From: Candidatus Parcubacteria bacterium | GTDB lineage: Bacteria > Patescibacteriota > Minisyncoccia > UBA6257 > HR35 | Assembly: GCA_025999335.1 (NCBI GenBank) | Contig: AP024681.1 | Span: forward strand, 523,547 to 587,546 | Direction of reading: 5' to 3' | Length of the DNA stretch: 64,000 nucleotides | Shown here: one piece after another, positions 7,361 to 46,844 of the stretch | Numbering within the stretch: the first letter of the stretch is position 1 | How the letters are laid out: each line of letters opens with the position of its first letter | Notes under the pieces: model-generated | Seen by the model: only the letters and a program-made list of their open reading frames with translations | The model's database searches: none | What the model was told of the DNA's origin: nothing | Translations under genes and position numbers: made by a program

Positions 7361-8319
7361 TGTATCTTCTAGGAGATATTGGGGGAACAAAGACAAGGCT
7401 AATATTTTGTAAATCAGACGAAGATTTTAGAAAACAAAAATTGCAAATTTTCATAACACCTCAAAACTACAGAGAATTTTTAGAATTATTAAAAAGTATT
7501 CTTCATTCGTATAAATCAGCATCTATTACGCATTTATCTGCGTGTATTTTTGGTTTTGCAGGAATGTTGGATAAAAAGAAAGAAAAATTGATTTATGCTC
7601 CCAATCTAAGAAATTTTGAAAACAAAAATTTAAAAAGAGATTTAGAGAAAATTTTGAAGACAGAAGTTATTTTAGAAAATGATGCTGCTTTAGCTGGTTT
7701 AGGAGAAGGGAAATACGGAGTAGCTCGCCTGTCCGGCGGACAGGGGAAAAATTTTGATGTTTTTGGATATATAACTTTATCAACAGGAATAGGAGGAGTG
7801 AAGATTATTAAAGTTAAAATAAGCCGTCTGAATGAAGATCGAATAAATCACCTGAATGAAGATCGAATAAATTCGGTAAATATTCGAGTAAATAATTCGG
7901 TTTTTAATTCGGGTAATAATAATTCGGTAAATATTCGGGTAGATTTTAACACATTCGGTTTTGAGCCAGGACATTCTTTTTTGTTAACGGATAATTTTTT
8001 ATTCGAGGTAGAAGAACTGCTTGGTGGCGAAAATATTAGAAAAACTTTTGGTAAAAAACCTGAAGATATAAAAGATAAAAAGTTTTGGAACTTTTATCAT
8101 CAAATTCTTTCAATTTTTTTAATCAATGTTTCAATTTTCTGGTCTATTGATAAAATAATTTTAGGTGGTAGTGTAATAAAAAGTTTAGATTTTAAAAAAT
8201 TAAATTTATTGGTTAACAAACTTCACCCTTTACCGATCAAAATAAAAATAATAAAATCAAAACTCGGTGAAATGAGTGTTTTATATGGGGGATTGGCAAT
8301 AGTGAAGCAAAATTTATGA
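7360..8319 (+). CDS. ROK-family sugar kinase carrying in-frame insertions
   Basis: DIGGT, LENDA, STGIGG, EPGH and ILGG motifs. Confidence 0.9.
   Translation: MYLLGDIGGTKTRLIFCKSDEDFRKQKLQIFITPQNYREFLELLKSILHSYKSASITHLSACIFGFAGMLDKKKEKLIYAPNLRNFENKNLKRDLEKILKTEVILENDAALAGLGEGKYGVARLSGGQGKNFDVFGYITLSTGIGGVKIIKVKISRLNEDRINHLNEDRINSVNIRVNNSVFNSGNNNSVNIRVDFNTFGFEPGHSFLLTDNFLFEVEELLGGENIRKTFGKKPEDIKDKKFWNFYHQILSIFLINVSIFWSIDKIILGGSVIKSLDFKKLNLLVNKLHPLPIKIKIIKSKLGEMSVLYGGLAIVKQNL
7505..7543 (+). repeat. Degenerate half-element of paired ATC(A/C/T)GCGT-like units within ROK
   Basis: ATTCGTAT-AA-ATCAGCAT..ATTACGCAT-TT-ATCTGCGT has the same layout as the tgt insert arm. Confidence 0.45.
7728..7744 (+). 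repeat. GC-rich palindrome CCTGTCC-GGC-GGACAGG, in frame in ROK
   Basis: Perfect 7-bp arms; adds ARLSGGQ within the usual YGAGK motif. Confidence 0.7.
7828..7941 (+). repeat. In-frame inverted array of CGAAT / ATTCG units in ROK
   Basis: Left arm (CTGAATGAAGATCGAATAAAT)x2; right arm has six ATTCG(G/A) units; ~40-aa insert. Confidence 0.85.
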
Positions 8320-8331
8320 TATAATATAAAA

Positions 8332-8508
8332 ATGGGAACAAAACTTAGAGAAAAAATTTTAAATATTCAAAGTGAATTGGAGATTTTAAAAAGGGTTTTC
8401 TTGAAAAAGCCTGATTTTTCTATTGATGAAAAGAATTGGAAAAAGATTAGAACTGAGATTAAAAAACTTAGAAAAGAGCTTTCTAAAAAGATCTATGCAA
8501 AAAAATAA
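8332..8508 (+). CDS. Putative antitoxin (58 aa), not in the ORF track
   Basis: MGTKLREKILNIQSELEILKR...KKIYAKK; extended -10 TGATATAAT 6 nt upstream; overlaps the PIN gene start. Confidence 0.7.
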   Translation: MGTKLREKILNIQSELEILKRVFLKKPDFSIDEKNWKKIRTEIKKLRKELSKKIYAKK

Positions 8509-9035: not shown

Positions 9036-9055
9036 CAGAATGACTTTTAGCTATT

Positions 9056-9097
9056 TAACAACGCTATTTTTTTTATAGATGTTTTTTTTGTATAATT
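9056..9097 (+). promoter_or_regulatory. Upstream motif ending in TATAAT, copy 1
   Basis: Near-identical to 10790-10830. Confidence 0.55.
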
Positions 9098-9312
9098 ATT
9101 TATTAATTGTAATTAATAGGTCGTTAATTTATTGCGATAAAAGTAATTGCTGATTTTATTAGTTATGGAAAATTAATTACAATTTTATTTTTAGTTAATT
9201 TCATTATTAAAAATTAATTGTTTTAAAGGTCAATCAATTAATTTAATAAATATTAAAGGTTAAAAATTATCAATTTTATAAAATAAGAAGTAAAAAATTT
9301 TTAATAATATTT

Positions 9313-10545
9313 ATGTTGAGTATGGCGATCTCGTTTTTAATATTTTCAACTGCAATTAACGCTCAAAGCACTAAAGATTCTGATCAGGATGGCATTTTTG
9401 ATGATAAAGATAACTGCCCTAATGTTTATAATCCTAAACAGGAAGATAAAAATCAAAACGGCATTGGTGATGCTTGTGAAGCAGTTCAATGTCCTGATAG
9501 CTCAACGATTGAGGGATATGTTATGCAATGCAAACAATCAGGTTTAGGTTATGAAACTTATCAAGATCAATCAGGTTGTACTCAAGTAAAATGCGTAACG
9601 ACTCAAAATATTTGTCCAAGCGAAACAGAGATAAATAATGCTGTTCAAAAATGTCAACAATCAGGTTCTGATTTTACTTATTACTATGACAACAATAAAT
9701 GCAAGCAAGTTCAATGTATCCCTAAGCAAAATACCTGTCCATCAGAAGCTGATGTTAATAAAAAAATTGAAACTTGCAGATCTCAAGGTTTAGATTATAA
9801 ATTAGAGTATGATAGTAATAAATGCAAGCAAGTTCAATGTATCCCTAAGCAAAATACCTGTCCATCAGAAGCTGATGTTAATAAAAAAATTGAAACTTGC
9901 AGATCTCAAGGTTTAGATTATAAATTAGAGTATGATAGTAATAAATGCAAGCAAGTTCAATGTATCCCTAAGCAAAATACCTGTTCAAGCTCAGAGACAT
10001 TAAATAGTATTATGGAAGATTGCAAGAAAAAAGGATTGGATTATGAATTTTATGAAGAGAATGGTTGTAAACAAGTAAAATGCAAGATACCCGAAAGAAA
10101 AGAATCAACTGAATGTAAAAAAACTGTACAGGGACAATGCATTACAATAACCTGTGGCGATGGTTATACTTTTAATTCTTGTGATGTTCAAAATATGTGT
10201 AAGAATGTTGAATGCAAAAAATTTACCAATGAAAAAGGTTGTTCAGTGTTAAAATGTTCAAATGGTTATGAAGAGTCAGAATGTCCATCAGAGCCTATCA
10301 AGCCAGAAAAACCAGATAAACCTAAGATAGAGTGCAAAACATTTAAAGATGAAAAAGGATGCACAGTTAAGAAATGTTCTGATGGTTCAGAAACTAAGGA
10401 TTGTCGCAATGTTAGGCCAACAAGAAATAAATGTAAAATTTCTACTTATCAATTAATTACTGGAAGACAGTGCGTGGTTAAAGAATGTACCAATGGTTAT
10501 CGCTCAGATAGTTGTAAGCCAAGCAAAAATAAGACAACGCAATAA
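9313..10545 (+). CDS. Secreted Cys-rich repeat protein with a TSP type-3 Ca-binding repeat
   Basis: Signal peptide, DSDQDGIFDDKDNCP..NPKQED..GIGDAC, many Cys modules. Confidence 0.8.
   Translation: MLSMAISFLIFSTAINAQSTKDSDQDGIFDDKDNCPNVYNPKQEDKNQNGIGDACEAVQCPDSSTIEGYVMQCKQSGLGYETYQDQSGCTQVKCVTTQNICPSETEINNAVQKCQQSGSDFTYYYDNNKCKQVQCIPKQNTCPSEADVNKKIETCRSQGLDYKLEYDSNKCKQVQCIPKQNTCPSEADVNKKIETCRSQGLDYKLEYDSNKCKQVQCIPKQNTCSSSETLNSIMEDCKKKGLDYEFYEENGCKQVKCKIPERKESTECKKTVQGQCITITCGDGYTFNSCDVQNMCKNVECKKFTNEKGCSVLKCSNGYEESECPSEPIKPEKPDKPKIECKTFKDEKGCTVKKCSDGSETKDCRNVRPTRNKCKISTYQLITGRQCVVKECTNGYRSDSCKPSKNKTTQ
9694..9984 (+). repeat. Perfect 123-bp tandem repeat (~2.4 copies)
   Basis: Copies start at 9694, 9817 and 9940. 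Confidence 0.95.
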
Positions 10546-12280: not shown

Positions 12281-13216
12281 CTATTTTTTGTTGTTATTTT
12301 TATTGTTATTTTTTTGAATAGATGCTTTGATGAATTCATCTGGTTCTCTGTGATAGACGGCTGCTTGTTTAATTGTTCAGTCATCTATATGAGGATATTT
12401 TTGTTTTAGGCGTTGAATAGTCTTTAATACTTGCTTAATAAATTGATCCGTTGTACTGGGATGGTGAACAGCGGCGTGTTTAATTATCCAATCATCTATG
12501 TTGTATTTTTCTTTGAGACGCTCAATTTCTCTTAATACTTTTTCAATAAATTGATCGGGTGTTTCATCTTTAATATAATGAACAGCGGCATGTTTGATTA
12601 TTCGTTCATCTATTTGGGGATATTTTTCTTTTAAGCGTTCAATTTCAGTCATTACTTGTTGAATAAATTCATCTATTTTTTTTGGATAATTAATAATAGT
12701 ATGTTTAATAATCCATTCGTCTATAAGAGGATATTTTTTCTTTAATTCTTTTAGAATATTTGGACCTAAAAGATGTTGTCGTTTGGCAATATTAAGAATA
12801 AGCGATGGTGTTAGGCTACTGCCTTTTTTTATCTCGTTTTTTGCTTTTTTTAATACTGATCTAAAACTTAAACCATAAGCTCCAATTATTTTTTTTAATC
12901 TTTCTTTTTGTATTTGTATATTTTGTTTAGGATGTAGAATGCCTATTCTAAATGCAGCTTTGATATTTAATCTTAAACCATCTAAAAAAGTTTGTTCCAC
13001 ATCTTTTATTTCAAGGCCTAATTCTTGAGCAAGATTCAAGATTTTAATTTCATTTAATTTCACTTCAGGATCTGTTTGCCTTAATTCTTCCAAAATATTT
13101 TCAGCTATATTGATAAAACTCTCAACTTTTGCAGTATATTGACCTCTTATTTCTACTTTTTCTTCACGTATTTTTTGTTGTTGTTGCAATTCTTCTTTGG
13201 CTCTTTTTATATCCAT
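12281..13216 (-). CDS. Helical-repeat protein with an internal TGA at 12377-12379 (truncated allele)
   Basis: LKEKY..ID.WIIKHAAVH..PDQFI repeats; the repeat continues 31 codons past the TGA to TAG at 12281. Confidence 0.65.
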
Positions 13217-13733: not shown

Positions 13734-14756
13734 ATGGGAAATTTTCAAGGAGGACAACCAACAATATCGACTCCAGATGATAATGAAAGATTTAAAAAAA
13801 TTGAAGAAGCGATTAATTTTCTTCGAGGAGTTAATATTGATTTTGAAGATGGAACAAAAATAACTTTTACTGATAAAGAATTGGAAGGAGTAAAAAAAAG
13901 TATTATTCAAAACCCAACATTTTTAAAAATATTTCTTGATATGATAAAACAACAATCAACTGAAGGCTTTGTCACAAAGTTTAAGCTTAATGTTCAAAAC
14001 CTACAAATTTCTCCTGAAGAGTGGAAAACTTGTGTTTTAGAACAACCATCACTTTTTGTTAGCTCACCAGAAACAATTAAATTCAATATCGAAGGAGTGG
14101 CTAGCTTTATAGCTGATATTTTACAAATATCTAAAGAAGAAGCTGAAAAACTTTATATTAGCAAAATTGCCTTGAAACATAGCTTTATAGCTGATATTTT
14201 ACAAATATCTAAAGAAGAAGCTGAAAAACTTTATATTAGCAAAATTGCCTTGAAACAACCATCACTTTTTACTCAATCTCCGGAAACAATAAAAACAAAA
14301 TTTGATCTTTATAATCTTTTTATAAATCAAGAAGAAAGTGGAATCACAGACTATTTGATTACCCAGCCTTCATATTTTACCCTTGCTTCCGAGAGAATAA
14401 TGGCTTTTTATGTTTTAGCAAAATTAATGAATAAAGAGTTAAGGTTTCGGATGTTAAAGGAAAATCCTCTTAATTTAGCTAGAGAAATGCTTTTTGGAGA
14501 AAATCGAGAAATTTTTGAGACATTATATGAATATTTCCGAAAACTTTTTGAACGAAGAAGAAGAATAAAAAGAAAAATAACTGACAGTGCTGAAATAGAA
14601 GCAAAAACAACCCTACGACATGCTGAAGTTCTTCTTAAATATTTTGGACCGAAGGAGCAAACGGGATTAACCCCAGAGCAGATTGAAAATATTAAAGAAT
14701 TAGTAACAAAAGTAAGAAATCATCTTAGAAAAGAGGAACTTAAAAAGAATAAATAA
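13734..14756 (+). CDS. mTERF-like helical repeat protein
   Basis: Repeated QPSLF..SPETIK motif. Confidence 0.55.
   Translation: MGNFQGGQPTISTPDDNERFKKIEEAINFLRGVNIDFEDGTKITFTDKELEGVKKSIIQNPTFLKIFLDMIKQQSTEGFVTKFKLNVQNLQISPEEWKTCVLEQPSLFVSSPETIKFNIEGVASFIADILQISKEEAEKLYISKIALKHSFIADILQISKEEAEKLYISKIALKQPSLFTQSPETIKTKFDLYNLFINQEESGITDYLITQPSYFTLASERIMAFYVLAKLMNKELRFRMLKENPLNLAREMLFGENREIFETLYEYFRKLFERRRRIKRKITDSAEIEAKTTLRHAEVLLKYFGPKEQTGLTPEQIENIKELVTKVRNHLRKEELKKNK
14102..14257 (+). repeat. Perfect 78-bp tandem duplication
   Basis: 14102-14179 equals 14180-14257. Confidence 0.95.
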
Positions 14757-27823: not shown

Positions 27824-29527
27824 ATGCTTAATAATTTTTTTTTAAAAAAGAAAAACGTTAAATATATTTTTGTTTGTGGCGGAGTTATGTCGGGCGTTGG
27901 TAAGGGAATAGCTACCTCATCTATTGCACGAATATTAGCTTGGCATGGCTATCAAACTACTTGTATCAAAATTGATCCTTATGTTAATGTTGATGCGGGG
28001 ACAATGAATCCGGTTGAACATGGCGAAGTTTTTGTTTTAAAAGATGGCACTGAATGTGATCAAGATATGGGACACTATGAAAGATTTTTAAATAAAGAAT
28101 TGACTAAGGAAAATTATATGACTACTGGCAGTGTTTATTTATCTTTAATCCAAAAAGAAAGAAGTTTATATTTTGATGGCAAGTGCGTTGAGGTTGTGCC
28201 GCATGTACCTCTTGAAGTTATTGATAAAATAAACAAAGCTCAAAAATTATCAAAAGCTGACATTGTTATTACCGAAATAGGTGGAACGATTGGCGAGTAT
28301 CAAAATCTTTTGTTTCTTGAAGCTGTTAGAATTTTAAAATTAAAATATCCCCAAGATGTTCTTTTGATTATGGTTAGCTATCTTCCTTATCAAGGCGAAG
28401 GTATGGAATTAAAAACTAAACCAACTCAATATGCTATTAGAAGTTTAAATTCCGCTGGTTTACAGCCAGATTTTATTTTAGCCCGCGCTATTATACCTCT
28501 TGACGATAATCGTAAGCAAAAAATTGCTTTTAATTGCAATTTAAATCCTGATGATGTTATTTCAGCTCCGGATGAGAATAATATTTATAAAATTCCCTTA
28601 AATTTTGAGAAAGATAAGCTTGGTATTAAAATTCTGTCTAAACTTAAGTTACGTCCTAAACGATCGCTTGCAAATGGTAGATCATTGTGGATTAAAAGAT
28701 TAGAGCAGATTAGACGAGCTACGAAAGAGATAAAAATTGGTATTGTTGGTAAATATTTTAAAACAGGCGATTTTGTTCTTTCTGATTCTTATATTTCAGT
28801 AATCGAGGCTATTAAGCATGCTAGTTGGTTTTTAGGTTATTTACCAAAAATTGATTGGTTAAATGCAGACGAGTTTGAAATAAATTCATCTAATTTATCG
28901 ATTTTAAAAAATTATCACGGTATTATTATCCCTGGTGGTTTTGGTAGTCGTGGCGTTGAAGGGAAGATTATGGCAATTAAATATTGTCGTCAAAATAAAA
29001 TTCCTTGTTTTGGTTTATGTTATGGTTTGCAGTTGATGATTGTTGAATTTGCTCGTAATATTTGTGGTTTGAAGGGTGCACACACAACCGAAGTTAATCC
29101 AAAAACAAAATATCCTGTTGTTGATATTTTAGAGGAACAAAAGAAATTGTTGAAGGAAAAACTTTATGGAGGTACTATGAGATTAGGAGATTGGGAATGC
29201 CAAATTAAAAAAGGGACAATTGCTTATGAAGCTTATAAAAAGATCTATGTTAATCAGCGTAAGCAACCTGCATTCATTAGTGTTCTTGAAAGACATCGTC
29301 ATCGTTATGAAATCAATCCTAAATATCATAAAATCTTACAAAAATACGGTTTTGTTTTTTCGGGTACGTCGCAAAAAGGTATTTTAGTGGAGATTGGTGA
29401 ACTTCCTCAAAAAATTCATCCTTTCTTTCTCGGTACTCAATTTCATCCTGAATTTAAGTCAAGATTTCTTCATCCTCATCCTTTATTTGTTGAATTTATC
29501 AGAGCTTCTAGTTTAAATGCAGCTTAA
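27824..29527 (+). CDS. pyrG: CTP synthase
   Basis: GGVMSGVGKG, KIDPYVNVDAGTM, KTKPTQ, GLCYGLQ, RHRHRYE, QFHPEF. Confidence 0.98.
   Translation: MLNNFFLKKKNVKYIFVCGGVMSGVGKGIATSSIARILAWHGYQTTCIKIDPYVNVDAGTMNPVEHGEVFVLKDGTECDQDMGHYERFLNKELTKENYMTTGSVYLSLIQKERSLYFDGKCVEVVPHVPLEVIDKINKAQKLSKADIVITEIGGTIGEYQNLLFLEAVRILKLKYPQDVLLIMVSYLPYQGEGMELKTKPTQYAIRSLNSAGLQPDFILARAIIPLDDNRKQKIAFNCNLNPDDVISAPDENNIYKIPLNFEKDKLGIKILSKLKLRPKRSLANGRSLWIKRLEQIRRATKEIKIGIVGKYFKTGDFVLSDSYISVIEAIKHASWFLGYLPKIDWLNADEFEINSSNLSILKNYHGIIIPGGFGSRGVEGKIMAIKYCRQNKIPCFGLCYGLQLMIVEFARNICGLKGAHTTEVNPKTKYPVVDILEEQKKLLKEKLYGGTMRLGDWECQIKKGTIAYEAYKKIYVNQRKQPAFISVLERHRHRYEINPKYHKILQKYGFVFSGTSQKGILVEIGELPQKIHPFFLGTQFHPEFKSRFLHPHPLFVEFIRASSLNAA
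29243..29284 (+). repeat. Degenerate half-element of paired ATC(A/T)GCGT-like units, in frame in pyrG
   Basis: ATCTATGT-TA-ATCAGCGT..ACCTGCAT-TC-ATTAGTGT; extra residues just before ERHRHR. Confidence 0.5.
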
Positions 29528-29661: not shown

Positions 29662-30993
29662 TTATCGGATTTTTTCAAATAAAAAAATTAAAGGATCAAT
29701 GTAACCATAATTTTGAGGACTATGAGGAGCATAGCCATAGCATTTAACTTTTTGACCTTTGATATTGCATTTAGCCGGCACTGGCGTTTCTAGTACAGGT
29801 TTAGTTTTAATTTCTAAATGTAAATGAGTATCCAAAGGGGTTTCTTTGTCGCATCCATCTTCTCCAATTCGCCAATAATTACAGCCAAAACCTGTTGCTC
29901 CAACCTTACCTAAAATTTGTCCAGCTTTTATAAAATCTTCTTCTTTAATTTTTGGATTAATTTCAGCCATATGACCATAAAGAGCATATAATTTTTCAGA
30001 TGTGAACTCTTGCGAACCTTCACGCGAACTTTTGCGAAAATCATTTTCAAACGCAAACTCCTGATATCTAGTTCGCACAGGTTCGCGATTATTATAGTTG
30101 TTTGCATCAGTTCGCGTCGCATTATTCTCTGTTTGCATTAGTTCGCGTTCGTTATAATTGTTCGCATTAGTTCGCGTTATTTCCACAATCACCGTATTTC
30201 CTAAGCCATGATCTTTTTCACCGTTTTTTATAATTTTTACAACTTTTCCGTCAGCTATTGAATAAACATTTAAATCTTTAGCTGACGGTAAAGGAGCAAT
30301 GTCAATGCCAGCATGTTGAATATAATCATTTTCTCTATCTTTTGAGTAAGTATAAGTTGTTCTTAAAGGATTGTTAAATTTTTGACGAATGAAGAATTCT
30401 TTAATATTTACTGGCTGATGAAATCCTTCTTTAATTTTAAAATTTTTGAAAGTTAAATAACTAATTACCAAATCTCCTGCTTTAGCAAGCTTGAAAAACT
30501 CTTGAGCATATTTATCTTCTAAACGGATACAACCACCTGTAAAATTTGAATTTACTCGTCTTCCATCGAGGTAATAAGGAATTTCATGGATGAAGAAATC
30601 TTCATACATTTGGACAGCATAATTCATATAAACAGGAAATAATGATGAAAAAAGCTTTTCTTTTTTGACGCCGATTCGAAAATAACCTGCTGGTGTTTGA
30701 TACCATTTTCCATAAGGAGCTTGATAAGCGATAGGAATTGTTTTTTTAAGTTCTCCGTTTTCAAAAAAATAAATTTTATTGTCAGTTAAATCGACTTCAA
30801 AAACCCTGTTTTCATTAATTTTTGGTTGTAAAACTTTATTTGTTTCTGTTAGGATGCTATTTTGGGGATCTCTATTATTAAAATTCAAAATAATTATTTT
30901 TGGTGTTAAGAATGAATCTAAATTATTAGTCGTTATTGCCGTTATATTGAAAATTGCTCCTAGTAATATAAAACTAAAAAATATATTTTGCAT
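29662..30993 (-). CDS. L,D-transpeptidase (YkuD) fused to an M23 peptidase
   Basis: FFIHE..TGGCIRL; HAGID, YGHM and HLHLE motifs. Confidence 0.88.
   Translation of the reverse strand: MQNIFFSFILLGAIFNITAITTNNLDSFLTPKIIILNFNNRDPQNSILTETNKVLQPKINENRVFEVDLTDNKIYFFENGELKKTIPIAYQAPYGKWYQTPAGYFRIGVKKEKLFSSLFPVYMNYAVQMYEDFFIHEIPYYLDGRRVNSNFTGGCIRLEDKYAQEFFKLAKAGDLVISYLTFKNFKIKEGFHQPVNIKEFFIRQKFNNPLRTTYTYSKDRENDYIQHAGIDIAPLPSAKDLNVYSIADGKVVKIIKNGEKDHGLGNTVIVEITRTNANNYNERELMQTENNATRTDANNYNNREPVRTRYQEFAFENDFRKSSREGSQEFTSEKLYALYGHMAEINPKIKEEDFIKAGQILGKVGATGFGCNYWRIGEDGCDKETPLDTHLHLEIKTKPVLETPVPAKCNIKGQKVKCYGYAPHSPQNYGYIDPLIFLFEKIR
30000..30177. repeat. In-frame inverted array of GCGAAC / GTTCGC units in the M23 domain
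   Basis: About five GCGAAC-like units followed by eight GTTCGC-like units, mostly in pairs 10 bp apart; ~58-aa insert. Confidence 0.9.
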
Positions 30994-31710: not shown

Positions 31711-31752
31711 AGAAAAGAAAGTTCTCTACAAAATAAAAACAACAATCATTAT

Positions 31753-31805: not shown

Positions 31806-31821
31806 CATAATATAAAATAAA

Positions 31822-33710: not shown

Positions 33711-33806
33711 TATTTATGTGAATTATAATAAATTTTTCTTAAAATCGCTAAACTTTATTAAATTAATTTCGCCCATTTTTTCTATGTTTTTTGTATATAC
33801 CCCCTC

Positions 33807-33956: not shown

Positions 33957-33980
33957 CAACTTTTTCACATAACTAATAGG

Positions 33981-35924: not shown

Positions 35925-35934
35925 TTTGTATCAT

Positions 35935-35971
35935 AAAGCCTCGCTACTCTAAAAAGATAGCGGGGCTTTTT
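35935..35971. terminator. GC hairpin just upstream of the primase start (terminator or attenuator)
   Basis: AAAGCCTCGCTA / TAGCGGGGCTTT followed by a T-run on the + strand. Confidence 0.55.
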
Positions 35972-36025
35972 CTTTTTTAATTTTGACCTTTAAGATGTTT
36001 AAGTACTTCTTCAATATCAAATCTT

Positions 36026-36313
36026 CTAATACTTCTTTCGTAACTTCTGATTGATTTCAGAACACCCATCTTCTCCCACCTTCTTAAAGTCTGTGGATGC
36101 ACGTTTAGGATTTTTGCAAGCTCTCCAATCTTGATAAATTTTTTCTCCATTTTTTGCTTTATTTTTTAATGATCGACCTTTAATTTTTTCAAAATTGAAA
36201 ATAACTTTATAAAGCTCCAAAATTTTTATTTTCTGTCTTAAAACTTCATCTTCTTTTAGCTTCAAGCCCGTTTCTTTGAATGCCTTTTCAAATTCTTTTA
36301 AATCTCTTTCCAT
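36026..36313 (-). CDS. Hypothetical protein of the element
   Basis: 95-aa ORF co-oriented with the primase. Confidence 0.45.
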   Translation of the reverse strand: MERDLKEFEKAFKETGLKLKEDEVLRQKIKILELYKVIFNFEKIKGRSLKNKAKNGEKIYQDWRACKNPKRASTDFKKVGEDGCSEINQKLRKKY

Positions 36314-36515
36314 TTCTCTTAAATTCTTACATTTGCTATAGGGGGAGTAAGGGAGATTTTTTTAAATATTTACTCTCACCATAGCTAAAAAATGTAGAAA
36401 AAATTAGGCAAAATAAAAAAGGAGTCTAATTAGCCTTCTTAAATTTCTAGCTCTTGACAAGGTTTAATCAAAGCAAACAAATCTTATTAGTACTGTTGTT
36501 TTTTTATTAATTTTT

Positions 36516-38159
36516 CTAAAAACTTTTAACTGCTTTTATAAAATCTCTGTAATCCTCTTTATTAACACTCCCCAATTTTAAAAGAGAACATAGCTCATTT
36601 AACGCTCGCCATGATTTTTGAGATTTTTCTAATATTTTCAGTATTATTTCCTTTAACTGAGGTAAATCATCGAGAGCATCAGCCAACATCCATAACAAAT
36701 GAATTTTTTCTCCCTCGAATGGAGTCATATTTTGATCTGCAAAAACATCTGAATAATTGCTTTCAAACTTTTCTACAAAAATAATAGCCTCTTTTATCGA
36801 CTGAAATTCTGATAAAATTTTTGATTTAAGATCTTTTAATTCTTGCCTGTTTTTATTTAAGTGCCTTTGTCTTGTTCTAATTTCCTGTTGATTTCTTGTA
36901 TGAATAGGTGGGTTAACTTTTACTATACCACTTTTTACATAGTTAATTAATTGAGATTGTTTTTTAAGTTCTTTTATTTCTTTCTTCCCATTTTTAATCA
37001 GGCTATTAAATCTCATAAACAGTCTTATAGTGTGCCTCAACTCATATTCTTTAGAATTTTTTATCTCTAAAATAGTTTTTAATCTTTTTCTGAATTCATT
37101 GTTTTCAGTTAATAGATAGCAAAGAACCCTTTTAGTATATGTTTTTTCGTCTTTAAATACTTTTTTGTTTTTTATCCGTTCCCTCATATATAGCCTCCAA
37201 TCATCAGGGTTGAACTCATCATAAAAAACATAATTTTTTAGCAAAGAACCATAAATATCAGGAATTTTGAATTTTTCAATAAAGTTTTTGGTAATTATTT
37301 TATAAGGGACAATCCTGTTTTCTTTATAAGAGACCTCTAATAAAGCTAAATAACCATAAACATCTTCCGTGTTAATTTGTTGTCCCTTAAGTATGTTGAA
37401 GTTTGTAAGATTATCAATATAAACGAAAGTTTCGCTTAATGGAATTTCTAAAATGTTTCTAATTTTCCCTGCATTCTTTAATTTCTGGTTGTTATTCAGT
37501 TCATTAATTTTCTTTTCTAATATTTCTAATGTCCAAAACCTATAATCTCTAAAAACTTTTTCTAAAGAAAAATTTTCGTCTAATTTCTTATATTTTTCTT
37601 CAATTTTCTTTCTTAAATTTAAAAAATCTTGAACATTAATTTTATATTTTTTTCGAAACTTTGCTACCTCTTTTTTGAAATTGTCTAAATTATTAAAATC
37701 CCAGTAAGATAAATATCCATCAAAATAAAGAAGTAATTTTTCCTGAATTATTTCGAATTTATCTAAAGTAGCAGCTTTTTTAAAAAGACTAACTACTTCA
37801 TTCTCATTATTTTTTAAGTAATTTCTAATCACCCCCACAGCATCTCCAATTTTTTCATCTACATATTCCGTCTCTTCTTTTTTTCTAAAAAATTTTTCTG
37901 TATGACTTAACTCCCCGCCAATTTCTTTTATTTCATAATCTAAATCGAAACCGCATTTTTCTAAGAAAAAATTGGATGTTAAATAATCGATAATGTAATC
38001 CACTTGATCTTCTCTTAACTTTATTTCCTTCAATTCTTTAGGGTAAATAGGAAAATAATAAATATCATCAGGTAGTTTTTCGAATAATCTATAACCATTT
38101 CCGCTTTTCAATTGCTCTTTAATACCATTTTTAATTTTCTCTACTAGATTTTTTATCAT
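36516..38159 (-). CDS. Hypothetical 547-aa protein of the element
   Basis: Long ORF; no recognised motif. Confidence 0.75.
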   Translation of the reverse strand: MIKNLVEKIKNGIKEQLKSGNGYRLFEKLPDDIYYFPIYPKELKEIKLREDQVDYIIDYLTSNFFLEKCGFDLDYEIKEIGGELSHTEKFFRKKEETEYVDEKIGDAVGVIRNYLKNNENEVVSLFKKAATLDKFEIIQEKLLLYFDGYLSYWDFNNLDNFKKEVAKFRKKYKINVQDFLNLRKKIEEKYKKLDENFSLEKVFRDYRFWTLEILEKKINELNNNQKLKNAGKIRNILEIPLSETFVYIDNLTNFNILKGQQINTEDVYGYLALLEVSYKENRIVPYKIITKNFIEKFKIPDIYGSLLKNYVFYDEFNPDDWRLYMRERIKNKKVFKDEKTYTKRVLCYLLTENNEFRKRLKTILEIKNSKEYELRHTIRLFMRFNSLIKNGKKEIKELKKQSQLINYVKSGIVKVNPPIHTRNQQEIRTRQRHLNKNRQELKDLKSKILSEFQSIKEAIIFVEKFESNYSDVFADQNMTPFEGEKIHLLWMLADALDDLPQLKEIILKILEKSQKSWRALNELCSLLKLGSVNKEDYRDFIKAVKSF

Positions 38160-38651
38160 TTTTGCTAAAATTTTATATTTCCTTATTAAAAAGTCAACTC
38201 TTAATTAAATTTTACCTAAAAGTTATAAAGCTTAAACCTTTTTAAAAGCTTACGGGCTTAAATGTATTTTGTGAAAATTTAAAAATTCCGCAGATTTTAC
38301 AAAAATTAAAAATCTTTATTATATTCACCACGAAGTCTATTCCTTGCTTTAAAAATAACTCCCTGTACCCCTCCCCTGGCTATGTTTAAACAAGCGCTCT
38401 TTACCACTATAGTTTCACTTTTTACTTTTTAAGTCATTCCATTATCTAACAAGAAGGAGATAATTTTTAAAGCAGAAATTTTTACTATAAAACACCATAA
38501 CACCATAACACTAAATTCTACAATCTGAATATTTAAATTAAATTTCAAAAATCCTCTCAAAAAACTAAGATTCCAAGCATAATTAAACCCTAAATTCCTT
38601 AAACAAAATTCACAATTTTTGATAAAATTTAATTAATAAAGGCTGAGAACA

Positions 38652-38804
38652 ATGGTTGATAAAAATAATAAAAAGAATGATAAAAAATTTGTAGAGTTGA
38701 TCTGGCATGGAAAATATAAAGAATTTAATTTGAAAGATAAAATTTCTATCGAGAGACCAAATCTGCCGTTCCAGTTTATAGAAACAATTAATGAACCTAT
38801 ATAA
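38652..38804 (+). pseudogene. N-terminal stub of a type III R-M Mod-like methyltransferase
   Basis: Manual translation ..VELIWHGKY..IERPNLPFQFIETINEPI* resembles Mod N-termini (recalled, not searched). Confidence 0.6.
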
Positions 38805-38940
38805 ATATGGAACAGCTTAAATATTTTCTAAATTAATTAAATTATACATAGCAACAGTTAGGTTATGAACAAGTTACTAGAAATTCGCATAAATTGCCCT
38901 AAGGAATATTTAAAAATAAATTAAAAAATAATGTTAAAAA

Positions 38941-41685
38941 ATGAGAAACTCGACAAACAATTGGAAGACGGTAGTATTAAAAAAGTTTGAGGAACTAGAT
39001 TATAAGAAAGAGATTCTTACAATTTTTGATGAAAGAACCAAAAAGATAGATTTTTCAAGTTGTATTAAGCAACATCAAAAACAGAACTTCGAAGACGAAG
39101 CTTACATAAGAGCCTATCTTGTTTTGAGACTCATAAAAGAGCTTAATTATCCATGTGAAGTGATAGAGTTAGAAAAAAAATATTCCATAGGTCATCCTTC
39201 TAAAAAAGAAGCCCGTTTAGATATTCTTGTTAAGACTAAAAGAGGAAATCCATTCATGTTATTAGAGTGCAAAACCCCAGATAACTTTATCAAAGAAAAA
39301 GATGATGCTCTAGAAAATCAACTTTTTGCAATTGCTAAGCACGAAATAAGAGGCGAAATAAAACCAAAATACTTAGTCTTATATACAATAGATATTGAAA
39401 ATGGAAAAGTTTTAGATAGAGCAATTATAATAGATTTCGAACAATACTCAACTTATGAAGATTGGAAAGAAGCAGGAGAATCTTCCTTGGATGAGATACC
39501 AGCAGATTATGGTATAGCAAAAAAATATACGTATGCCAACATAGAAAGACCAAATCCAAATGGTGGTTTAAAACCCCTAAGAAAAGATTATACTCTTGCA
39601 GATTTTGAAAAGCTAAGAGTAGATCTACATAACAAATTATGGGCTGGAGGTGAGGCTGATTACAACGATATCTTCTATCATCTAATAAAGATAATGCTCG
39701 TTAAAATATATGATGAGTTATTTACGCCCGAAGGAGGAATTTATGACTTTCAAATATTTTATAAGAATGGTGAACCAGAAACCCCAGAGGAACTAGCAGA
39801 AAGATTAGAAAAGAAATACAAAATCGCTTTAAAAGAACTTTTAAACTATGATGATGAAAAAATAAAGGAAATACCTTTGATTGAGAGAGATAAATTTACT
39901 TATGAAAAGTTATTCTATGCCGTAGAGAAACTCCAAGAAATTTCTTTAACAGAAAATATTCATAGCAAAGGAGAAGATGTTTTGGGCTTATTCTTTGAAA
40001 GCATATTACAAAACGAATTTAAACAAAGTAAAGGACAGTATTTCACTCATAAGAATATTGTAAGATTTTTAATTTATGCATTAGAATTAGATAAATTAGC
40101 GATAGACAAGTTGAATCAAACATATCCACACTTTCCATACATTATAGACCCTGCTGCTGGTAGTGGCACATTTCTTGTTGAAGCAATGAAAATTATTACA
40201 AAAGAAGTGTTGAGAAATAAAGATAAATTAAAACTTACTAGATCTTTAAAAGAAAAAATAAAGGACTTAGAAGACCCTAATAGGAAACATCGTTGGGCAG
40301 AAGATTATATTTATGGAATTGAGCCGAACGCCCGTTTAGGTTTAGCAACCAAACTAAACATGATTCTGCATGGCGATGGAAACATGAATATTTTTATTGA
40401 AGATGGTCTAATGCCTTTCAAAATAAAAGATGAAGCGTTTTACACGAGAAAGTGGAAAGGGAAGGATGTTGGTTTGTTGGCTGAGGGTGAAAATACGAGT
40501 ATTTACCCAAAACCAATAAATGGACGTTTTGATGTGGTACTATCAAACCCGCCTTTCTCTATGAAAATTGAGGCGATGAAAGCTTATAGGTACATAAAAG
40601 ATACCTTTGTTTTTTACGATAAGAAAAATTCAGAAAACTTATTTATAGAAAGATGGTTCCAGTTATTAGCCCCCAAAGGAAGATTAGGTGTTGTCTTGCC
40701 AGAAAGTGTTTTTGATACTAAAGAAAACCTATATATCAGGAATTTTCTTTATAAGTATTTCAAAATAAAGGCTATCATCAGCCTGCCTAAGGAAGCTTTT
40801 GAACCTTACACATCAACGAAGGTTAGTTTGTTAATTGCAGAAAAGAAAACCGATGAAGAAATTAAAGCATGGGAGGATAAATGGAGAGAGTATGCAAACA
40901 AATACAATAAATTAAGAAATTCAGAAATAATCCGGTTTTTCATAGAGAACGATAAAATTCTTAACTCTTTCAGAACACTTTTGGACAAACATAATATTGA
41001 AATAGATTATTCAAAAGTTTTGGTTCATGACTTGTTGGATGATAATTTGAAAGGTGAAATTGAAGCAAAAATATTACAAAATGATAAAAATAAATTTAAG
41101 GATTTGGTAAAGAAAATAAAATACTTTAAAGATAAATATAAACTGGACGAGTTAGATACTGAAGAAAATAAGAAAATTCTGAAGGAATTTCTGAAACAAT
41201 TTTATCCACAAGAGCAAGAGCTTAAGAGTTTTAAAGAACTCTTAGAATATGTTTATGATGATGTTCTGGAAATAGCCACTTTGGACTATCCACAAATTGA
41301 AGGGCAAAACAATTACTGTAATAGCTGGTGGGTTTTTGGAGAGGTATCTAAGCACTTTAATTATTCGATATTCTACGCTGAAGTTGAAAACATTGGGTAT
41401 AAGAGAACAAAGAGGGGCGAACAAGACAAAGACATTCCAATAAAAGATGAAAATGGAAATATCATCGCTTTTAAAAACGATTTCTTTAAAGTTAAAGCCG
41501 AGAAAGTGAAGAGAACATATTGGGTTAAGAAAGGGGATAAAGTAGTTCAGGAAGAAAAAGAGGAAATTATCAAAACCGACATAATAATAGATACAGAAAA
41601 TCCTGAAACTGTGCTTGACCATATAAGAAGTGCAAACATTTGGTCAGAAAATTCCAATTTTAATTTTGAGGTGAAAGAAAAATGA
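38941..41685 (+). CDS. Fused restriction endonuclease (HSDR_N-like) and N6-adenine methyltransferase
   Basis: RLDI..LLECK nuclease; GQYFT, DPAAGSG and NPPF methyltransferase motifs. Confidence 0.92.
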   Translation: MRNSTNNWKTVVLKKFEELDYKKEILTIFDERTKKIDFSSCIKQHQKQNFEDEAYIRAYLVLRLIKELNYPCEVIELEKKYSIGHPSKKEARLDILVKTKRGNPFMLLECKTPDNFIKEKDDALENQLFAIAKHEIRGEIKPKYLVLYTIDIENGKVLDRAIIIDFEQYSTYEDWKEAGESSLDEIPADYGIAKKYTYANIERPNPNGGLKPLRKDYTLADFEKLRVDLHNKLWAGGEADYNDIFYHLIKIMLVKIYDELFTPEGGIYDFQIFYKNGEPETPEELAERLEKKYKIALKELLNYDDEKIKEIPLIERDKFTYEKLFYAVEKLQEISLTENIHSKGEDVLGLFFESILQNEFKQSKGQYFTHKNIVRFLIYALELDKLAIDKLNQTYPHFPYIIDPAAGSGTFLVEAMKIITKEVLRNKDKLKLTRSLKEKIKDLEDPNRKHRWAEDYIYGIEPNARLGLATKLNMILHGDGNMNIFIEDGLMPFKIKDEAFYTRKWKGKDVGLLAEGENTSIYPKPINGRFDVVLSNPPFSMKIEAMKAYRYIKDTFVFYDKKNSENLFIERWFQLLAPKGRLGVVLPESVFDTKENLYIRNFLYKYFKIKAIISLPKEAFEPYTSTKVSLLIAEKKTDEEIKAWEDKWREYANKYNKLRNSEIIRFFIENDKILNSFRTLLDKHNIEIDYSKVLVHDLLDDNLKGEIEAKILQNDKNKFKDLVKKIKYFKDKYKLDELDTEENKKILKEFLKQFYPQEQELKSFKELLEYVYDDVLEIATLDYPQIEGQNNYCNSWWVFGEVSKHFNYSIFYAEVENIGYKRTKRGEQDKDIPIKDENGNIIAFKNDFFKVKAEKVKRTYWVKKGDKVVQEEKEEIIKTDIIIDTENPETVLDHIRSANIWSENSNFNFEVKEK

Positions 41686-43076
41686 AAGTACAAAATATTA
41701 CTTTACAAAATATTTCTCGGAATTACTATCTGCGTTTAGATTATAAAATTAATGCGTATCATTCTCATATTAGAAAAGATTATAAAAATGGTTGGAAAGT
41801 AAAGGACTTCCTTAAAATTATCAAGGCAAATCAAACAAAACCAGAAAACTTTGATGAAGGATATTTAATAGAATTAGAACATATTTTAAGCGGAGATGTG
41901 GAATTGAATAATGTTAAAAAAGTTAATGAGATTGGTTCAGATAAAGTTATTCTTAATCAAGCTAATTTTGCTTATTGTAAACTGGAAACAGGTAAAGGCT
42001 ATTTTATAGCTCTTCCTGAGGACATTCCTGATTATGATGGTGTATCATTAATTGTTGGGTCTACAGAGCTAGTACCATGTAGAGTAAGCATTAATAACAA
42101 AATTGCGAAATATTATCTTACACACTTTAAAGAAATTTTTAATATGTTCCTTTCTGGAAAAACGCATAGAAGGATACATGAAATAGAATTCTTAAATATA
42201 GAACTTCCAAAAATAAAAATTAGCAATACTCTATTGGATAAGATAATTTCAATTGAGAAAGAAATCTCTAAACTTAAAACTCAAATCAAGGAACCTAAAA
42301 TTATTGTAGATGAAGTTTTCAGCAAATACTTTAAACTTGATCTGAAACAATATTCAAATTTAGAAAAGAAACATATATTTGGAGAAGATTTGTTTAACTT
42401 ATCTAAATCTGCACAACTCAGGAGTTCTCTAAAGTTTCATCATCCAAAATTTGATTTTGTTTTGAAAAAAATAAAAGAGTTCAAAACTGTAAAACTGAAA
42501 CAATTACTGAAAGAACCTGTAAGAAGAGGCGTTCAACCAGAATATGAAGAAGAAGGGGGAATCCTCGTAATAAAAACTATTAATGTAAATAAAGAAGGAT
42601 ACATTGATTTAACCGAAACCGAATTTGTTAGTGATGAGTTTTATAACAAAGTAAAAAAGAAGGCAGGAATTCAACAAGGAGACATTCTTATAACATCTAC
42701 AGGCGAAGGACGGGGGAAGGTAAGCTTATATGACTTAGATGAACCCGCAATTATAGATACTCACATATCAATAGTCAGGTGCAAAGAAGATGTGAATAAA
42801 AAATATTTAACCTACTTTTTGCTATCAAGTATGGGAGAGAACCAATTAAGTATTTTAGAGCAAGCCATTAAAGGAACCCCAGAAATTTATCCACGAGAAA
42901 TAGAAAAACTTATTGTAATCTATCCTCCCTCTGAAATTCAGAACAAAATAGTTGAAGAAATAGAGACAAAACTTAACGAACAAAGAAAAATTACCAGGCA
43001 AATAGAGAAACTAAAACAAGAAATAGATAAACTGATAGAAAAAGCAATTTTGGATAACAAACTAAAAAATGATTAA
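41682..43076 (+). CDS. R-M specificity subunit (two TRDs)
   Basis: GSTEL, SGKTH.RI, GDILI.STG..GK, P.P..Q..IV motifs; ATGA overlap with the upstream gene. Confidence 0.9.
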   Translation: MKVQNITLQNISRNYYLRLDYKINAYHSHIRKDYKNGWKVKDFLKIIKANQTKPENFDEGYLIELEHILSGDVELNNVKKVNEIGSDKVILNQANFAYCKLETGKGYFIALPEDIPDYDGVSLIVGSTELVPCRVSINNKIAKYYLTHFKEIFNMFLSGKTHRRIHEIEFLNIELPKIKISNTLLDKIISIEKEISKLKTQIKEPKIIVDEVFSKYFKLDLKQYSNLEKKHIFGEDLFNLSKSAQLRSSLKFHHPKFDFVLKKIKEFKTVKLKQLLKEPVRRGVQPEYEEEGGILVIKTINVNKEGYIDLTETEFVSDEFYNKVKKKAGIQQGDILITSTGEGRGKVSLYDLDEPAIIDTHISIVRCKEDVNKKYLTYFLLSSMGENQLSILEQAIKGTPEIYPREIEKLIVIYPPSEIQNKIVEEIETKLNEQRKITRQIEKLKQEIDKLIEKAILDNKLKND

Positions 43077-43350
43077 GACTCTTGGGCGCGTGCGGGACTT
43101 TTTATTTAATTTTGTGAAGTTTATTTTTACAGTTCGCTAATAAACGAATATCTGATTCAAGCTTTTAGTCTTAGGTAAAATTATTCTAGAAATTTTAAAC
43201 ATTAATAATATTATTAAGTTGAAAGTAAAGAAGATGTCGAGAAGTCTAAAAGAAGGTTTTAATATCGCAAAACAACCCCAGCTGTATTCCTTATCTTCAA
43301 TTTCACTTTCCATTCTGTTTGTTTTATAATATTTTCAAGAGTTCGAATAA

Positions 43351-45144
43351 AATTTTCCCTGCGGAGGAGAAAGATTAGAAAAAGGAAAAACATACATCAT
43401 TAGATGGGAGTCCAATGGTGTTTCACATGTTTATCTTAAATTAAGAAAAGGTAATGATGCATACCCAGGACAGGAAGGAATGATATCCGGTATTATTTTT
43501 AATACAGGATTTTATCAGTGGACAGTTCCCAAAACATTACCATATGGAAATGATTACAAGATTAGGGTGATTGATGCTGATTTAATATCTTCAACAAATG
43601 TAGACACAGGACCTGTTATTGATGATAGCGATGCTTCATTTAGTATTGTCTCTTCAACAACTACTCCTTCAATCAGAGTTATTTCACCTAATGGAGGAGA
43701 AAATTGGACTATCGATTCTTATCAAAAAATAAAATGGAGCGCACTCAATGATAAAACAGTTAGTATTTATTTAAAAAGGTATATTTCTTGTCTTTATGCT
43801 CAGCCTAAGTGTCGATTAACAGAACCAATGCCTATAATTATTGCTGAGAATATTCCAAATATAGGTGAATATGATTGGCAAGTTGGGAATATTGTTAAAA
43901 AATTTGAATATCAAACTTTATCTTCAGGTAGTTATATTATTGAGATTAGAGGAAATAATTCAGGAGAAGTAGATGTTAGTGATAAACCGTTGCAAATTGT
44001 TTATACAAATAGTCCTTTAAATCCTTCAAAACAAGCTTGTATTCAGGCTACAACTTTTGCTTATGATCCTAAAAATCCATCAAAATGTCAAGAATTTTCA
44101 ACACCTTGCGATGTTCCCGAGGGTTGGCTAACAACAGATAAATGCCAACAAAAAAATACTTTCTTAGAACCTATGGAGGTGCCAGTATTGGTTATAAAAT
44201 ATTATCCTACTCAAAATGGACGAACTATTGATACTTCCATTACTTTGGATATTCCTCAAGGAAGAACTATCAAAGAACAAGATGAAATCACCAATAGTTT
44301 GAATAAAAAATTGATAAAAGCCCTAACTGAAGGAAGTAAATATCATGGTTATAAAAATTCTAATGCTTTACCTTTTTTAACTTATAAAGTGATTGCAGAA
44401 AAGACATTTTTGAAAAGATTACCTTTAACTGATAACAAAATAATAGATTACTTTAGTATTATGAAAGATCTTAATGTTTGTGATTATGTTGATAATAAAG
44501 GGGTTAAAGAAATTTGGATTTGGGCTTATGCTAGCAATTACGAAATAATGTGGGAATCTAATTTTTCATCTATTTATGGTGATATAAGTAATAGCAATCG
44601 AGACCCTAATGATTTGCCTGTTTGTAAAAAATCGTATACTGTTTACACTTATAATTATGGCAGAGAATATGCTACGGCTTTGGAGAATCATGGTCATCAA
44701 ATAGAGCATATCTTAAATTGGATTGATGGTCGAGATATAACACCAAATGATCAATGGGATAAGCTTTTATTCTGGGGTAAATTTGTTGGGCGAAATTTTG
44801 AAAATAAAATACTGCCTCCTGTTTCTGCTTGTGGTTGGATTCATTCTCCGCCAAATACAGAAAAAGATTATCATTGGTATGAGAAAACCCAAGTATTTTC
44901 AGACTGTGAGGATTGGAATCCAAATAGAACAGGCAAGAAAAAACCTGTAAACTGCGTTACCTGGACTGGTAATTCTGAATGTAAAGATGATGGCGGAGGA
45001 GAAATGTTTAAAATTTGGTGGATGCAAAATATTCCTGGCTATAAAAATGAGCTTTACTATAATAATATCAAACTAAGAAATTGGTGGGAATTTATTGGCG
45101 ATTTTGATGAAGCTTTGAAAATAGGGAAAAGTTTGACTTACTGA
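43351..45144 (+). pseudogene. 5'-truncated surface protein with Ser/Thr-rich (SPNGGE-type) Ig-like repeats
   Basis: Frame is open upstream of ATG 43480 (FPCGGERLEKGKTYIIRW, matching internal SPNGGENW..KIKW) back to a stop at 43348; no signal peptide. Confidence 0.65.
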
Positions 45145-45572
45145 ATAAATAATTTTTTTATTTTCAGTTAGATATTTTTTAATTAAATTTTGTTTCTAAA
45201 TTAGTTTTTAATTCATTAAGTAATCTTTTAGTTTCATCAAAAAATTTTCGTTGTTATTATAATTTTCAGTATAGAAAACAATTTTTAATTGATTTTGAGC
45301 AATTAGTTTTATAGTAAAAATTTCTTGAAGTTGAGAAGATATATTCAAATCTTTAGCTATCTTATTGTAAATATTTTCGATTTCATAAACAGATAATTTT
45401 TCAACTTCACCGCTAATATTAAAAAATGTTTTTTCTTTGAATTTCAGAAAAATTAAGTTTAATTTTTTTGTTTGTTTAATTTCGATTTCTTGAGATATTT
45501 GGCGTTTTTGTTTGTTTTTTTAAATAATTTTTCAAAAAATTTCATTTTTCATTTTTTATTTTAATAAGACTT

Positions 45573-46844
45573 TTATAATTTTAAAATAGTTTTTTTGAAA
45601 TTTGAAAACCTGTTTTCTTTAATTGACTTTCTAATTTCTTTAAATAAATTCAAAATCCAGAACACATTATGTTCAGTTAAAAGTATAATGCCGTAAATTT
45701 CTTTTTCGCGAAGCAGATGACAAATATATGCTCGTGAATATTTTCTACAAATATTACATTTGCATTTGGGATCAATAGGTTTTTTATCTGTTAAATATTT
45801 ACTTGCTTTTAAATTAATTCTTCCATTAAAACTAAATCCTGTTCCATGCCTTGCCCATCTGGTTGGAATTACACAATCAAATAAATCAATTCCTTGTTCA
45901 ATTGAATTCAAAATATCATCAATTTCTCCAATTCCCAAAAGATGTCGTGGTTTTTTATAATCAAGATAAGGCAAAGCCCAACTTAAAACTTTAATAATAT
46001 CTTTTTTACTTTTACCCAAACTTCCACCGATACCAAAACCAAAAAAGGGAAGTGAATTAATAAATTGAGCCGATTCTTTTCTTAAATCTTCATATTCTCC
46101 TCCTTGAACAATTCCAAACAAAACTTGATTTTTGGTTTTACCAAATTCATCCAAGCATTTAATTGCCCATTTATGAGTTCTTTTTAATGCTTCTTTTGTG
46201 TATTTATAATCAGACAAAGGGGAAGTGCATTCATCAAAAGCAAAAATAATATCTGCGCCCAAAATTTTTTGAACTTTAATTGAAATTTTTGGAGATAAAA
46301 ATAATTTTTGTCCATTGTAAGGATCAATAAATTCAACACCATCATCATAAATTCTAACCAGATTCTTTTTTAATGCAGATAAACGCGGATTTTTATCACG
46401 CGGATTTACGCCGATATTATTTTCTGTGTATATCCCGTTTTTTTTATTTTCCGCGTAGTTCCGCGTTAGTTCTGCAGAGTTTTTCATTTCCTCAGGAAAA
46501 ATATCTGCCACTTTTCCAACCCCATGTTCCATTCCGAAACCCAAACTAAAAACCTGAAATCCTCCACTATCAGTCATTAAAGGATAATTAATATTTAAAA
46601 ATTTATGCAAACTACCAAATTTTTTAATAATTTTATATTTTTCCTGACGAAAAAAATGAAAAGTATTAATCATAAAAATTTCAGCACCAAATTTTTTAGC
46701 TTGTTCAAAACTTAAACCTCGAATACCACCTTTTGTTGCAACAATTGCTAAATTAGGAGTTTTAATTAAACCATGAGGTGTTTTAAAAATTCCTAATCTT
46801 GCTTTTGTTGTTTTGTCTTTCTTTAATATTTTAAATTTAAACAT
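45573..46844 (-). CDS. tgt: tRNA-guanine transglycosylase
   Basis: TDSGGFQVFSL, FDECT, GIVQGG, PRHLLG, DCVIPTR and C.C..C motifs. Confidence 0.97.
   Translation of the reverse strand: MFKFKILKKDKTTKARLGIFKTPHGLIKTPNLAIVATKGGIRGLSFEQAKKFGAEIFMINTFHFFRQEKYKIIKKFGSLHKFLNINYPLMTDSGGFQVFSLGFGMEHGVGKVADIFPEEMKNSAELTRNYAENKKNGIYTENNIGVNPRDKNPRLSALKKNLVRIYDDGVEFIDPYNGQKLFLSPKISIKVQKILGADIIFAFDECTSPLSDYKYTKEALKRTHKWAIKCLDEFGKTKNQVLFGIVQGGEYEDLRKESAQFINSLPFFGFGIGGSLGKSKKDIIKVLSWALPYLDYKKPRHLLGIGEIDDILNSIEQGIDLFDCVIPTRWARHGTGFSFNGRINLKASKYLTDKKPIDPKCKCNICRKYSRAYICHLLREKEIYGIILLTEHNVFWILNLFKEIRKSIKENRFSNFKKTILKL
46373..46477. repeat. In-frame inverted array of ACGCGGA / TCCGCGT units in tgt
   Basis: GCAGAT-AA-ACGCGGAT..ACGCGGAT-TT-ACGCCGAT versus TTCCGCGT-AG-TTCCGCGT-TAG-TTCTGC. 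Confidence 0.88.

Follow-up and report, generated by a model that had tools for sequence, protein, structure and literature searches.

In-frame inverted arrays in core genes of a Parcubacteria genome as probable gene-less copies of a GxxExxY nuclease cassette

We know of no enzyme identified for in-frame palindromic inserts of the Rickettsia type, the closest parallel to the elements considered here. These are five stretches of short phased units, arranged as inverted arrays or single arms, that lie within the genes for a ROK-family sugar kinase, CTP synthase (PyrG), a YkuD + M23 peptidase and tRNA-guanine transglycosylase (Tgt; insert designated TGT) in 64,000 nucleotides (the window) of a Candidatus Parcubacteria genome (contig AP024681.1, positions 523,547 to 587,546). 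The source genome (G000; other G and L numbers denote compared genomes and loci) is a single 680-kb contig of 28.5% GC and 98.9% completeness. The nearest described elements are the Rickettsia palindromic elements (RPE), which belong to the intragenic MITEs (miniature transposable elements with inverted repeats); as characterized in the relevant passages of PMC10969869, these resemble the window inserts in that they are palindromic, carry no gene, measure about 100-180 bp, interrupt unrelated metabolic genes without breaking the frame and are predicted to suit the fold of the host protein. According to the same passages an RPE family encodes one conserved peptide, whereas the window inserts are arrays of 6-8-bp units with variable spacers, nesting and mosaics; only short arm words are common to them, and alleles vary in length and arm type. 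They also have a candidate gene-carrying form, in which a nuclease lies between the same arms. The REPIN/RAYT system, as outlined in PMC3337134, is similar in that its inverted pairs are non-autonomous, probably depend on an enzyme that is encoded once per genome and acts in trans, and leave single-arm remnants. It differs in that REPINs are extragenic, while six of the seven strict arrays of the source genome lie inside open reading frames (ORFs), and in that the candidate enzyme here is a PD-(D/E)XK nuclease located between the arms. The Y1 (HUH) transposase of RAYTs (PF01797) had no match in the source genome.

Inteins place a homing nuclease in frame inside conserved proteins, and mini-inteins are nuclease-less short forms at the same site. 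Full cassettes in relatives of the source genome likewise carry an in-frame nuclease and have nuclease-less short forms, but their ends are set by DNA arms, and in place of a single homing site for each allele they have many unrelated sites and arm types. A Hint splicing domain was not found by Pfam in two fused transketolases, ROK or M23. Intervening sequences of 23S rRNA that encode S23p (23S_rRNA_IVP) also enclose a small ORF in an inverted-repeat stem and are sporadic and apparently selfish; in the portions of PMC4990558 and 10.1101/2024.02.27.582315 that describe them they lie in rRNA and are excised by RNase III without ligation, whereas the cassettes lie in mRNA frames that have to remain unbroken and encode a different protein. 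The main text of a preprint on rRNA insertions in the candidate phyla radiation (CPR) does not contain the GxxExxY family. Function is given as 'Unknown' for that family (PDDEXK_3), with multiple transfers, in the passages of PMC3424549 devoted to it, which mention no flanking arms, in-frame fusion or gene-less copies, and a GxxExxY gene adjoins a reverse transcriptase in 10.1101/2021.01.26.428298. GxxExxY is named a single time in PMC12085832. Our literature searches, which covered few subscription papers and no supplements, did not find a description of the cassette. The window elements work like RPE/MITE or REPIN elements and by these comparisons are members of neither, and the nuclease cassette is apparently undescribed.

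We assign a probability of about 0.85 to the reading that the window inserts are gene-less arms of a GxxExxY cassette that are retained in the host protein. As shown in Table 1, there are three full inserts and two single-arm relics. The sequence-only reading had described arrays in ROK, M23 and TGT with a left arm followed by a reverse-complement right arm, relics in ROK and PyrG, and preserved frames; all were present where it had placed them, the relics consist of a right arm only, and host frames are open through all five stretches. The ROK insert has four left units (YYGAAT; spacing 11, 13, 11) and six right units (ATTCG(G/A); spacing 11, 13, 12, 15, 11). The M23 insert has eight phased GC(G/A)AAC units on the left, paired at a distance of 10 with 19-21 between pairs, plus one off-phase unit, and five on the right (spacing 19, 10, 12, 10). 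Left units of the TGT insert are spaced 11 and 10, with one 27 further in, and right units 10, 15 and 10. The units are phased as had been claimed, but the spacing is 10-13 rather than a strict 10-11 bp. Similarly, the claim that the inserts share architecture but not sequence stands for the architecture and is overstated for the sequence: M23 and TGT units are variants of a single consensus, C-R-C-N-R-A-Y, and 17 exact bases are common to the M23 insert and the copA insert.

A genome-wide scan placed these arrays well above shuffled sequence (7 strict arrays, tRNA excluded, versus 0-1). The motif-free detector, which requires two copies of any CG-containing 5-mer followed by two reverse-complement copies, returned eight loci in the source genome, one of them a tRNA, compared to none or one in each of 30 codon shuffles. 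It recovered M23 and TGT and missed ROK because the left units of ROK are degenerate; the ROK insert was found by a tuned scan with a degenerate unit. The inserts are thus a real feature that did not arise by chance. A looser, hand-checked list contains 16 stretches in 13 genes plus the copA leader, and every host on it except tgt is single copy. A candidate at genome position 190517 (secA) and the tRNA matches were rejected as false positives, and a fixed-spacing pattern for ROK-type arms was uninformative, missing the source genome itself. The arm-only element of the copA leader (G000:C1:656753-656858) is nearly identical in G023 (L266), a different genus, for which recent operon transfer or co-option is possible.

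Table 1. Inserts, relics and host genes in the window (window coordinates).
Feature	Position	Strand	Evidence and remarks
ROK-family sugar kinase gene (host)	7360..8319	+	PF00480, ORF
Right-arm-only relic in ROK	7505-7543	+	CGCNGA-type units at 7516, 7526, 7537
21-nt GC-rich palindromic insert of another kind, ROK	~7723-7743	+	in frame, 7 extra residues
Gene-less element, CCGAAT-type arms, ROK	7828-7941	+	tuned scan, orthologues; net +40 residues
CTP synthase PyrG (host, single copy)	27824..29527	+	TIGR00337 above cut-off; no paralogue found
Right-arm relic in PyrG	29243-29284	+	net +11 residues; arm inserts at site in 5 relatives
YkuD + M23 peptidase gene (host)	29662..30993	-	PF03734, PF01551
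Gene-less element, GCGAAC-type arms, left arm duplicated, M23 gene	30000-30177	-	net ~+56 residues
tRNA-guanine transglycosylase Tgt (host)	45573..46844	-	TIGR00430
Gene-less element, CGCGGA-type arms, TGT gene	46373-46477	-	net +29 residues vs genome's second tgt

The full comparison of orthologues covered the four window genes, with 27 tgt loci out of 31, 12 M23 loci out of 20 and 23 pyrG loci out of 30 picked up by motif matching; placement of the inserts in loops comes from the alignments. The Tgt span around the insert has 81 residues, whereas empty alleles have 48-57 there and the second tgt of the genome (G000:C1:595790-596980; 71-77% identity), whose site is empty, has 52. The position corresponds to a two-residue link in a solved Tgt, and the catalytic and zinc residues are invariant across the family alignment. 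Arms of other kinds, some of them mosaic (GCGAAC left with GTCCG right), occupy this site in five more genomes of the family, and one arm type is nested within another among Tgt protein homologues; nested and mosaic arms occur at pyrG as well. Of 19 other loci, 15 have no arms at the main ROK site, and the remaining four have arms of the GCGAAC type in place of the CCGAAT type. None of the 150 best ROK homologues exceeds 318 aa, and almost all of them align in two blocks that are separated at the insert. The ROK relic site is occupied in G001, G003, G018 and G023 by comparable right arms or by a complete element without a gene, and in other relatives by nothing. The M23 site is empty in 9 of 11 other matched loci. 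The PyrG site is empty in 98 of 120 homologues and longer in 22, none of which has the nuclease.

Since relatives are empty or carry other arm types at these sites, the inserts are not conserved protein. Functional protein loops kept by selection, or low-complexity sequence arising by chance, might have been proposed instead, and P0002, a close Tgt homologue, does have a diverged insert of equal length. This indicates that the Tgt copy of the source genome was inherited. Most orthologues, however, are empty, filled alleles differ in arm type and the arrays exceed shuffles, which makes both proposals barely credible. Of the earlier claim that these are insertions of mobile type, the alignments at four genes thus uphold recent insertion, orthologues not sharing the segments as conserved protein and the units being enriched.

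The protein encoded in full cassettes scored above both cut-offs, TIGR04256 and PF13366, and 138 of the order's 401 genomes have a PF13366 nuclease. Among the matches listed, which leave aside 102 weaker ones, 51 of about 150 lie in open frames longer than 250 codons. Of the 69 domains examined first, 49 are fused in frame within host genes, namely LepA (16), RecG (14), transketolase (4), glycosyltransferases, CopA, RtcB, SecA and others, named from blastp to the source genome, Pfam domains and motifs; some of the names are presumptive. The fused nuclease runs on into downstream host sequence without a stop. The sequence-only reading had not anticipated this in-frame location of the full element in host enzymes. 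A further 78 GTDB loci yielded 13 fusions (9 of 40 labelled CPR and 4 of 38 labelled otherwise). The left arm commonly has four CRCNRAY units spaced 10-12-10 and the right arm 10-11-10, and in a set of 114 domains, 61 of them from standalone cassettes that were sampled, shared 6-mers (at least two per side) flank 70 in inverted orientation compared to 9 in direct orientation. One transketolase site has empty, left-arm relic and full-cassette alleles.

Of the 49 fused copies, all but one (48) retain the catalytic D, E and K. A model of the domain (pLDDT 93.5) has a PD-(D/E)XK fold with conserved D, ExK and QxxxY residues. Foldseek placed it closest to SSO0001 (4ic1, presumably a Cas4; E 1e-5), with lambda-type exonucleases also close. 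A wide fold search gave middling scores (Z 8.6 and below), and a sequence search of solved structures reached E 0.6-0.8 at best. TnsA is not among the fold matches listed, which excludes nothing.

Several cassette loci had features of their own. Standalone cassettes (L196-L240, L018) often span exactly the interval from one stop codon to the ATG that follows and have perfect outer inverted repeats of 20-23 bases. In L049 and L062 the right arm is translated as the hydrophobic start of the following protein. A membrane glycosyltransferase-like protein of G363 (L051) contains two separate GxxExxY cassettes, both in frame, whose arm types differ. In G020 (L249) and G002 (L257) several arm types are stacked in intergenic blocks of 500-600 bases, one of which comes right after a tRNA-like sequence.

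The window inserts were matched to cassette arms against a null of random segments. The M23 insert scored 90 and the TGT insert 64, compared to a null maximum of 53; the best matches were the arms of a full cassette in CopA of G001 and in transketolase of G008, respectively. The sequence-only reading had named GxxExxY as a possible partner, and this gained support by association, since the same kinds of arm bracket the gene in relatives. Its other suggestion, four-helix-bundle genes, was not found in a search of the source genome. The more distant the nucleases, the less alike were their arms (rho -0.24, 0 of 300 permutations; -0.22 when hosts and genomes both differed). Of 37 cassette pairs within a genome, most have no arm word in common; arm type follows the nuclease tree and not the genome. 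One nuclease clade spans CopA, transketolase and NDH-2 (support 100/99 and 84/86 in two trees), and the GCGAAC right-arm pattern is present in 3-18 copies in all four family genomes with that clade compared to 2 of 21 others. Arms and gene thus travel together; that the nuclease recognises the arms is a proposal beyond this. The source genome itself has no detectable GxxExxY gene or remnant (best E 0.85 with a custom six-frame profile) and no 23S_rRNA_IVP or TIGR02436 match, and the window copies are best read as orphaned, non-autonomous elements.

Several results weigh against the view that the inserts derive from the nuclease cassette. The ROK insert and both relics fall within the null (51, 43 and 39 versus a maximum of 49-53), so that they appear tied to the cassette by unit type only. 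G023 and the source genome have GCGAAC arms but not the corresponding nuclease clade. Simple co-inheritance would also make arms and nuclease travel together, and related genomes do not count as independent cases. In an approximately unbiased test on 31 selected rows, a single origin of the nucleases at one site was rejected marginally for transketolase (p-AU 0.04, for a group chosen after seeing a tree) and was not rejected for LepA (0.36) or RecG (0.12); some cassettes may therefore be old and vertically inherited. The fold is that of a Cas4/RecB-like nuclease and of no known transposase. A near-identical strain with an empty site and a target duplication was not found; the flanks have diverged and host loop residues were seemingly replaced. 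Near-identical contigs in one DNA run contained no empty allele, though two diverged tgt alleles had other sequence at the site (ROK region excluded), and a metagenome scan with ROK gave four loci, with no new allele type in the one looked at. Nor was a full cassette found at tgt or PyrG (0 of 120 each), at ROK (the 150 best homologues being too short) or at the M23 loci, with a ranking that disfavours long insertions.

The allele series at transketolase could also mean that each arm pair is an in-place relic, where a full cassette was inserted, its nuclease was later deleted and the arms never moved, expanding only by slippage. The fixed polarity fits this. Of 29 loci with a GCGAAC right arm, 19 lie in long frames with the orientation and phase of full cassettes, and reversed right arms were seen at two gene starts only, although reverse frames are open in 12 of 16 stretches. 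Arm blocks are also duplicated in M23 and ROK. The heavily invaded PyrG and Tgt sites, however, show arm-only alleles and no full one, one genome has 18 arm-pattern copies and one nuclease, and intergenic stacks combine several arm types, so that we regard this account as fairly unlikely for the inserts at large. The lack of a full cassette at the four window sites favours independent spread of arms, while the fixed polarity favours an origin from co-oriented full cassettes, and both processes may operate.

Spread might instead be driven by the host through slippage, template switching or gene conversion between hairpin repeats, with the nuclease a passenger. Each of the three full window inserts gives a good fold on one or both strands (z about -4 to -6), and in two cop operons, L264 (G021) and L257 (G002), the front of copA is missing beside arm arrays, either by arm-mediated deletion between arrays or by misassembly. 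A separate GC-rich palindrome family, unrelated to the arms, is present in gdh of the source genome (G000:C1 ~9050-9220) and in the CopA loop of G023 (L266), the site of full GxxExxY cassettes in other relatives, which indicates that permissive loops collect several kinds of repeat. Passenger status accords poorly with the near-complete conservation of catalytic residues in fused nucleases, with an arm type that tracks nuclease clade rather than genome, and with arm copy numbers that are high where the matching clade occurs. We consider it quite improbable.

The arms could act as sites on DNA or as a hairpin in mRNA. When left and right units were compared in 94 pairs, drawn from 31 cassettes out of 48 (registers set by spacing, kin not independent), the last unit base co-varies in 76 versus 34 expected, the central base hardly (36 versus 28) and spacers weakly, and A-C mismatches outnumber G-U pairs on the mRNA strand (20 versus 6). 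This pattern is closer to that of degenerate sites for a protein than to that of a helix in mRNA. Two observations tell against the DNA-site part: the ROK insert folds on the mRNA strand (z -4.0) and not on the other (z -0.3), and the better pairing of the antisense strand in 36 of 48 cassettes is largely compositional (p 0.051 versus shuffles). The perfect outer repeats of standalone cassettes fit DNA-site and RNA models alike.

If the arms pair in mRNA, the insert could be cut out and religated, for instance by the nuclease with RtcB, or bypassed by the ribosome, as the sequence-only reading had suggested. The fold of ROK and the outer repeats would suit such removal, own arms pair better than crossed arms (-44.8 versus -33.6 kcal/mol), RtcB and RNase III homologues are present in the source genome, and the fold search lists tRNA splicing endonucleases, though far down (Z 5-6). 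In-gene copies, however, are stop-free, comprise whole codons and have a single polarity and phase, whereas intergenic copies have stops in all frames. Single-arm relics cannot form the hairpin and yet are in frame, fused nucleases continue into host sequence, the source genome lacks the nuclease and has inserts in single-copy genes, and the mRNA strand pairs no better than its complement. Rfam intron models had no match in the window plus four cassette loci, where only two window tRNAs were detected. Bypass of the gene 60 type, in the account given in 10.1101/2022.08.31.505936, involves a stop or a hungry codon at take-off and a coding gap to be skipped, and the inserts are stop-free in the host frame, rare codons aside. 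The suggestion was therefore not supported: splicing or bypass appears unlikely, and as a general explanation of the inserts we give RNA-level removal very little credence. Retention in the protein would be the simplest account.

Under the cassette reading, the nuclease would recognise phased CRCNRAY-type units on DNA and cut or process ends, and host repair or recombination would copy the arms elsewhere, either alone or together with the gene and often into elements already present. Only copies in permissive loops and open frames would survive selection, and the inserts would probably be translated as extra surface loops. From the sequence comparisons we lean towards this whole chain, including copying in trans by the nuclease, with less assurance than towards the arms' derivation and retention. 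More tentatively still, and with some doubt, GxxExxY cassettes may form a class of prokaryotic mobile elements that has not been described before. In these a minimal nuclease of Cas4/RecB-like type would recognise the helically phased inverted arrays at its own ends, reside as an unspliced domain in essential proteins and mobilise copies made of arms only, which would nest, exchange arm types and write loops into the core proteome of Patescibacteria. GxxExxY, a large orphan family of 'unknown function', would thereby gain a candidate substrate in its own arms, and gene-less and gene-carrying forms could be paired by arm type. Streamlined genomes would be seen to accumulate selfish DNA within single-copy enzymes without splicing, and the inserts would map insertion-tolerant loops and explain oddly long Patescibacteria proteins.

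The window has further repeats of other kinds. The short ROK palindrome in Table 1, which the sequence-only reading had overlooked, is absent in G023 and has one genome copy by pattern search; a 'SASRQTG' stretch in TopA near 3843-3863 resembles it. A perfect intergenic palindrome of 26-28 nt occurs in five copies (window 23066, 23404 and 29576; genome 587550 and 677177), two of which bracket a small gene at 23122-23418 that we take to be helix-turn-helix-like. The region 31735-45144 is a probable integrated element beside a tRNA (32052-32123), with genes for a large serine recombinase, a primase-like protein and restriction-modification; a 38-nt repeat lies at 31735 and again at 32034. Repeat-rich proteins are encoded at 9313-10545, 12377-13216, 14102-14257 and 59888-61897, and their features include cysteine-rich tandem repeats of 123 nt, repeats of 117 nt, a 78-nt stretch that is duplicated exactly and a tail rich in Q, G and M.

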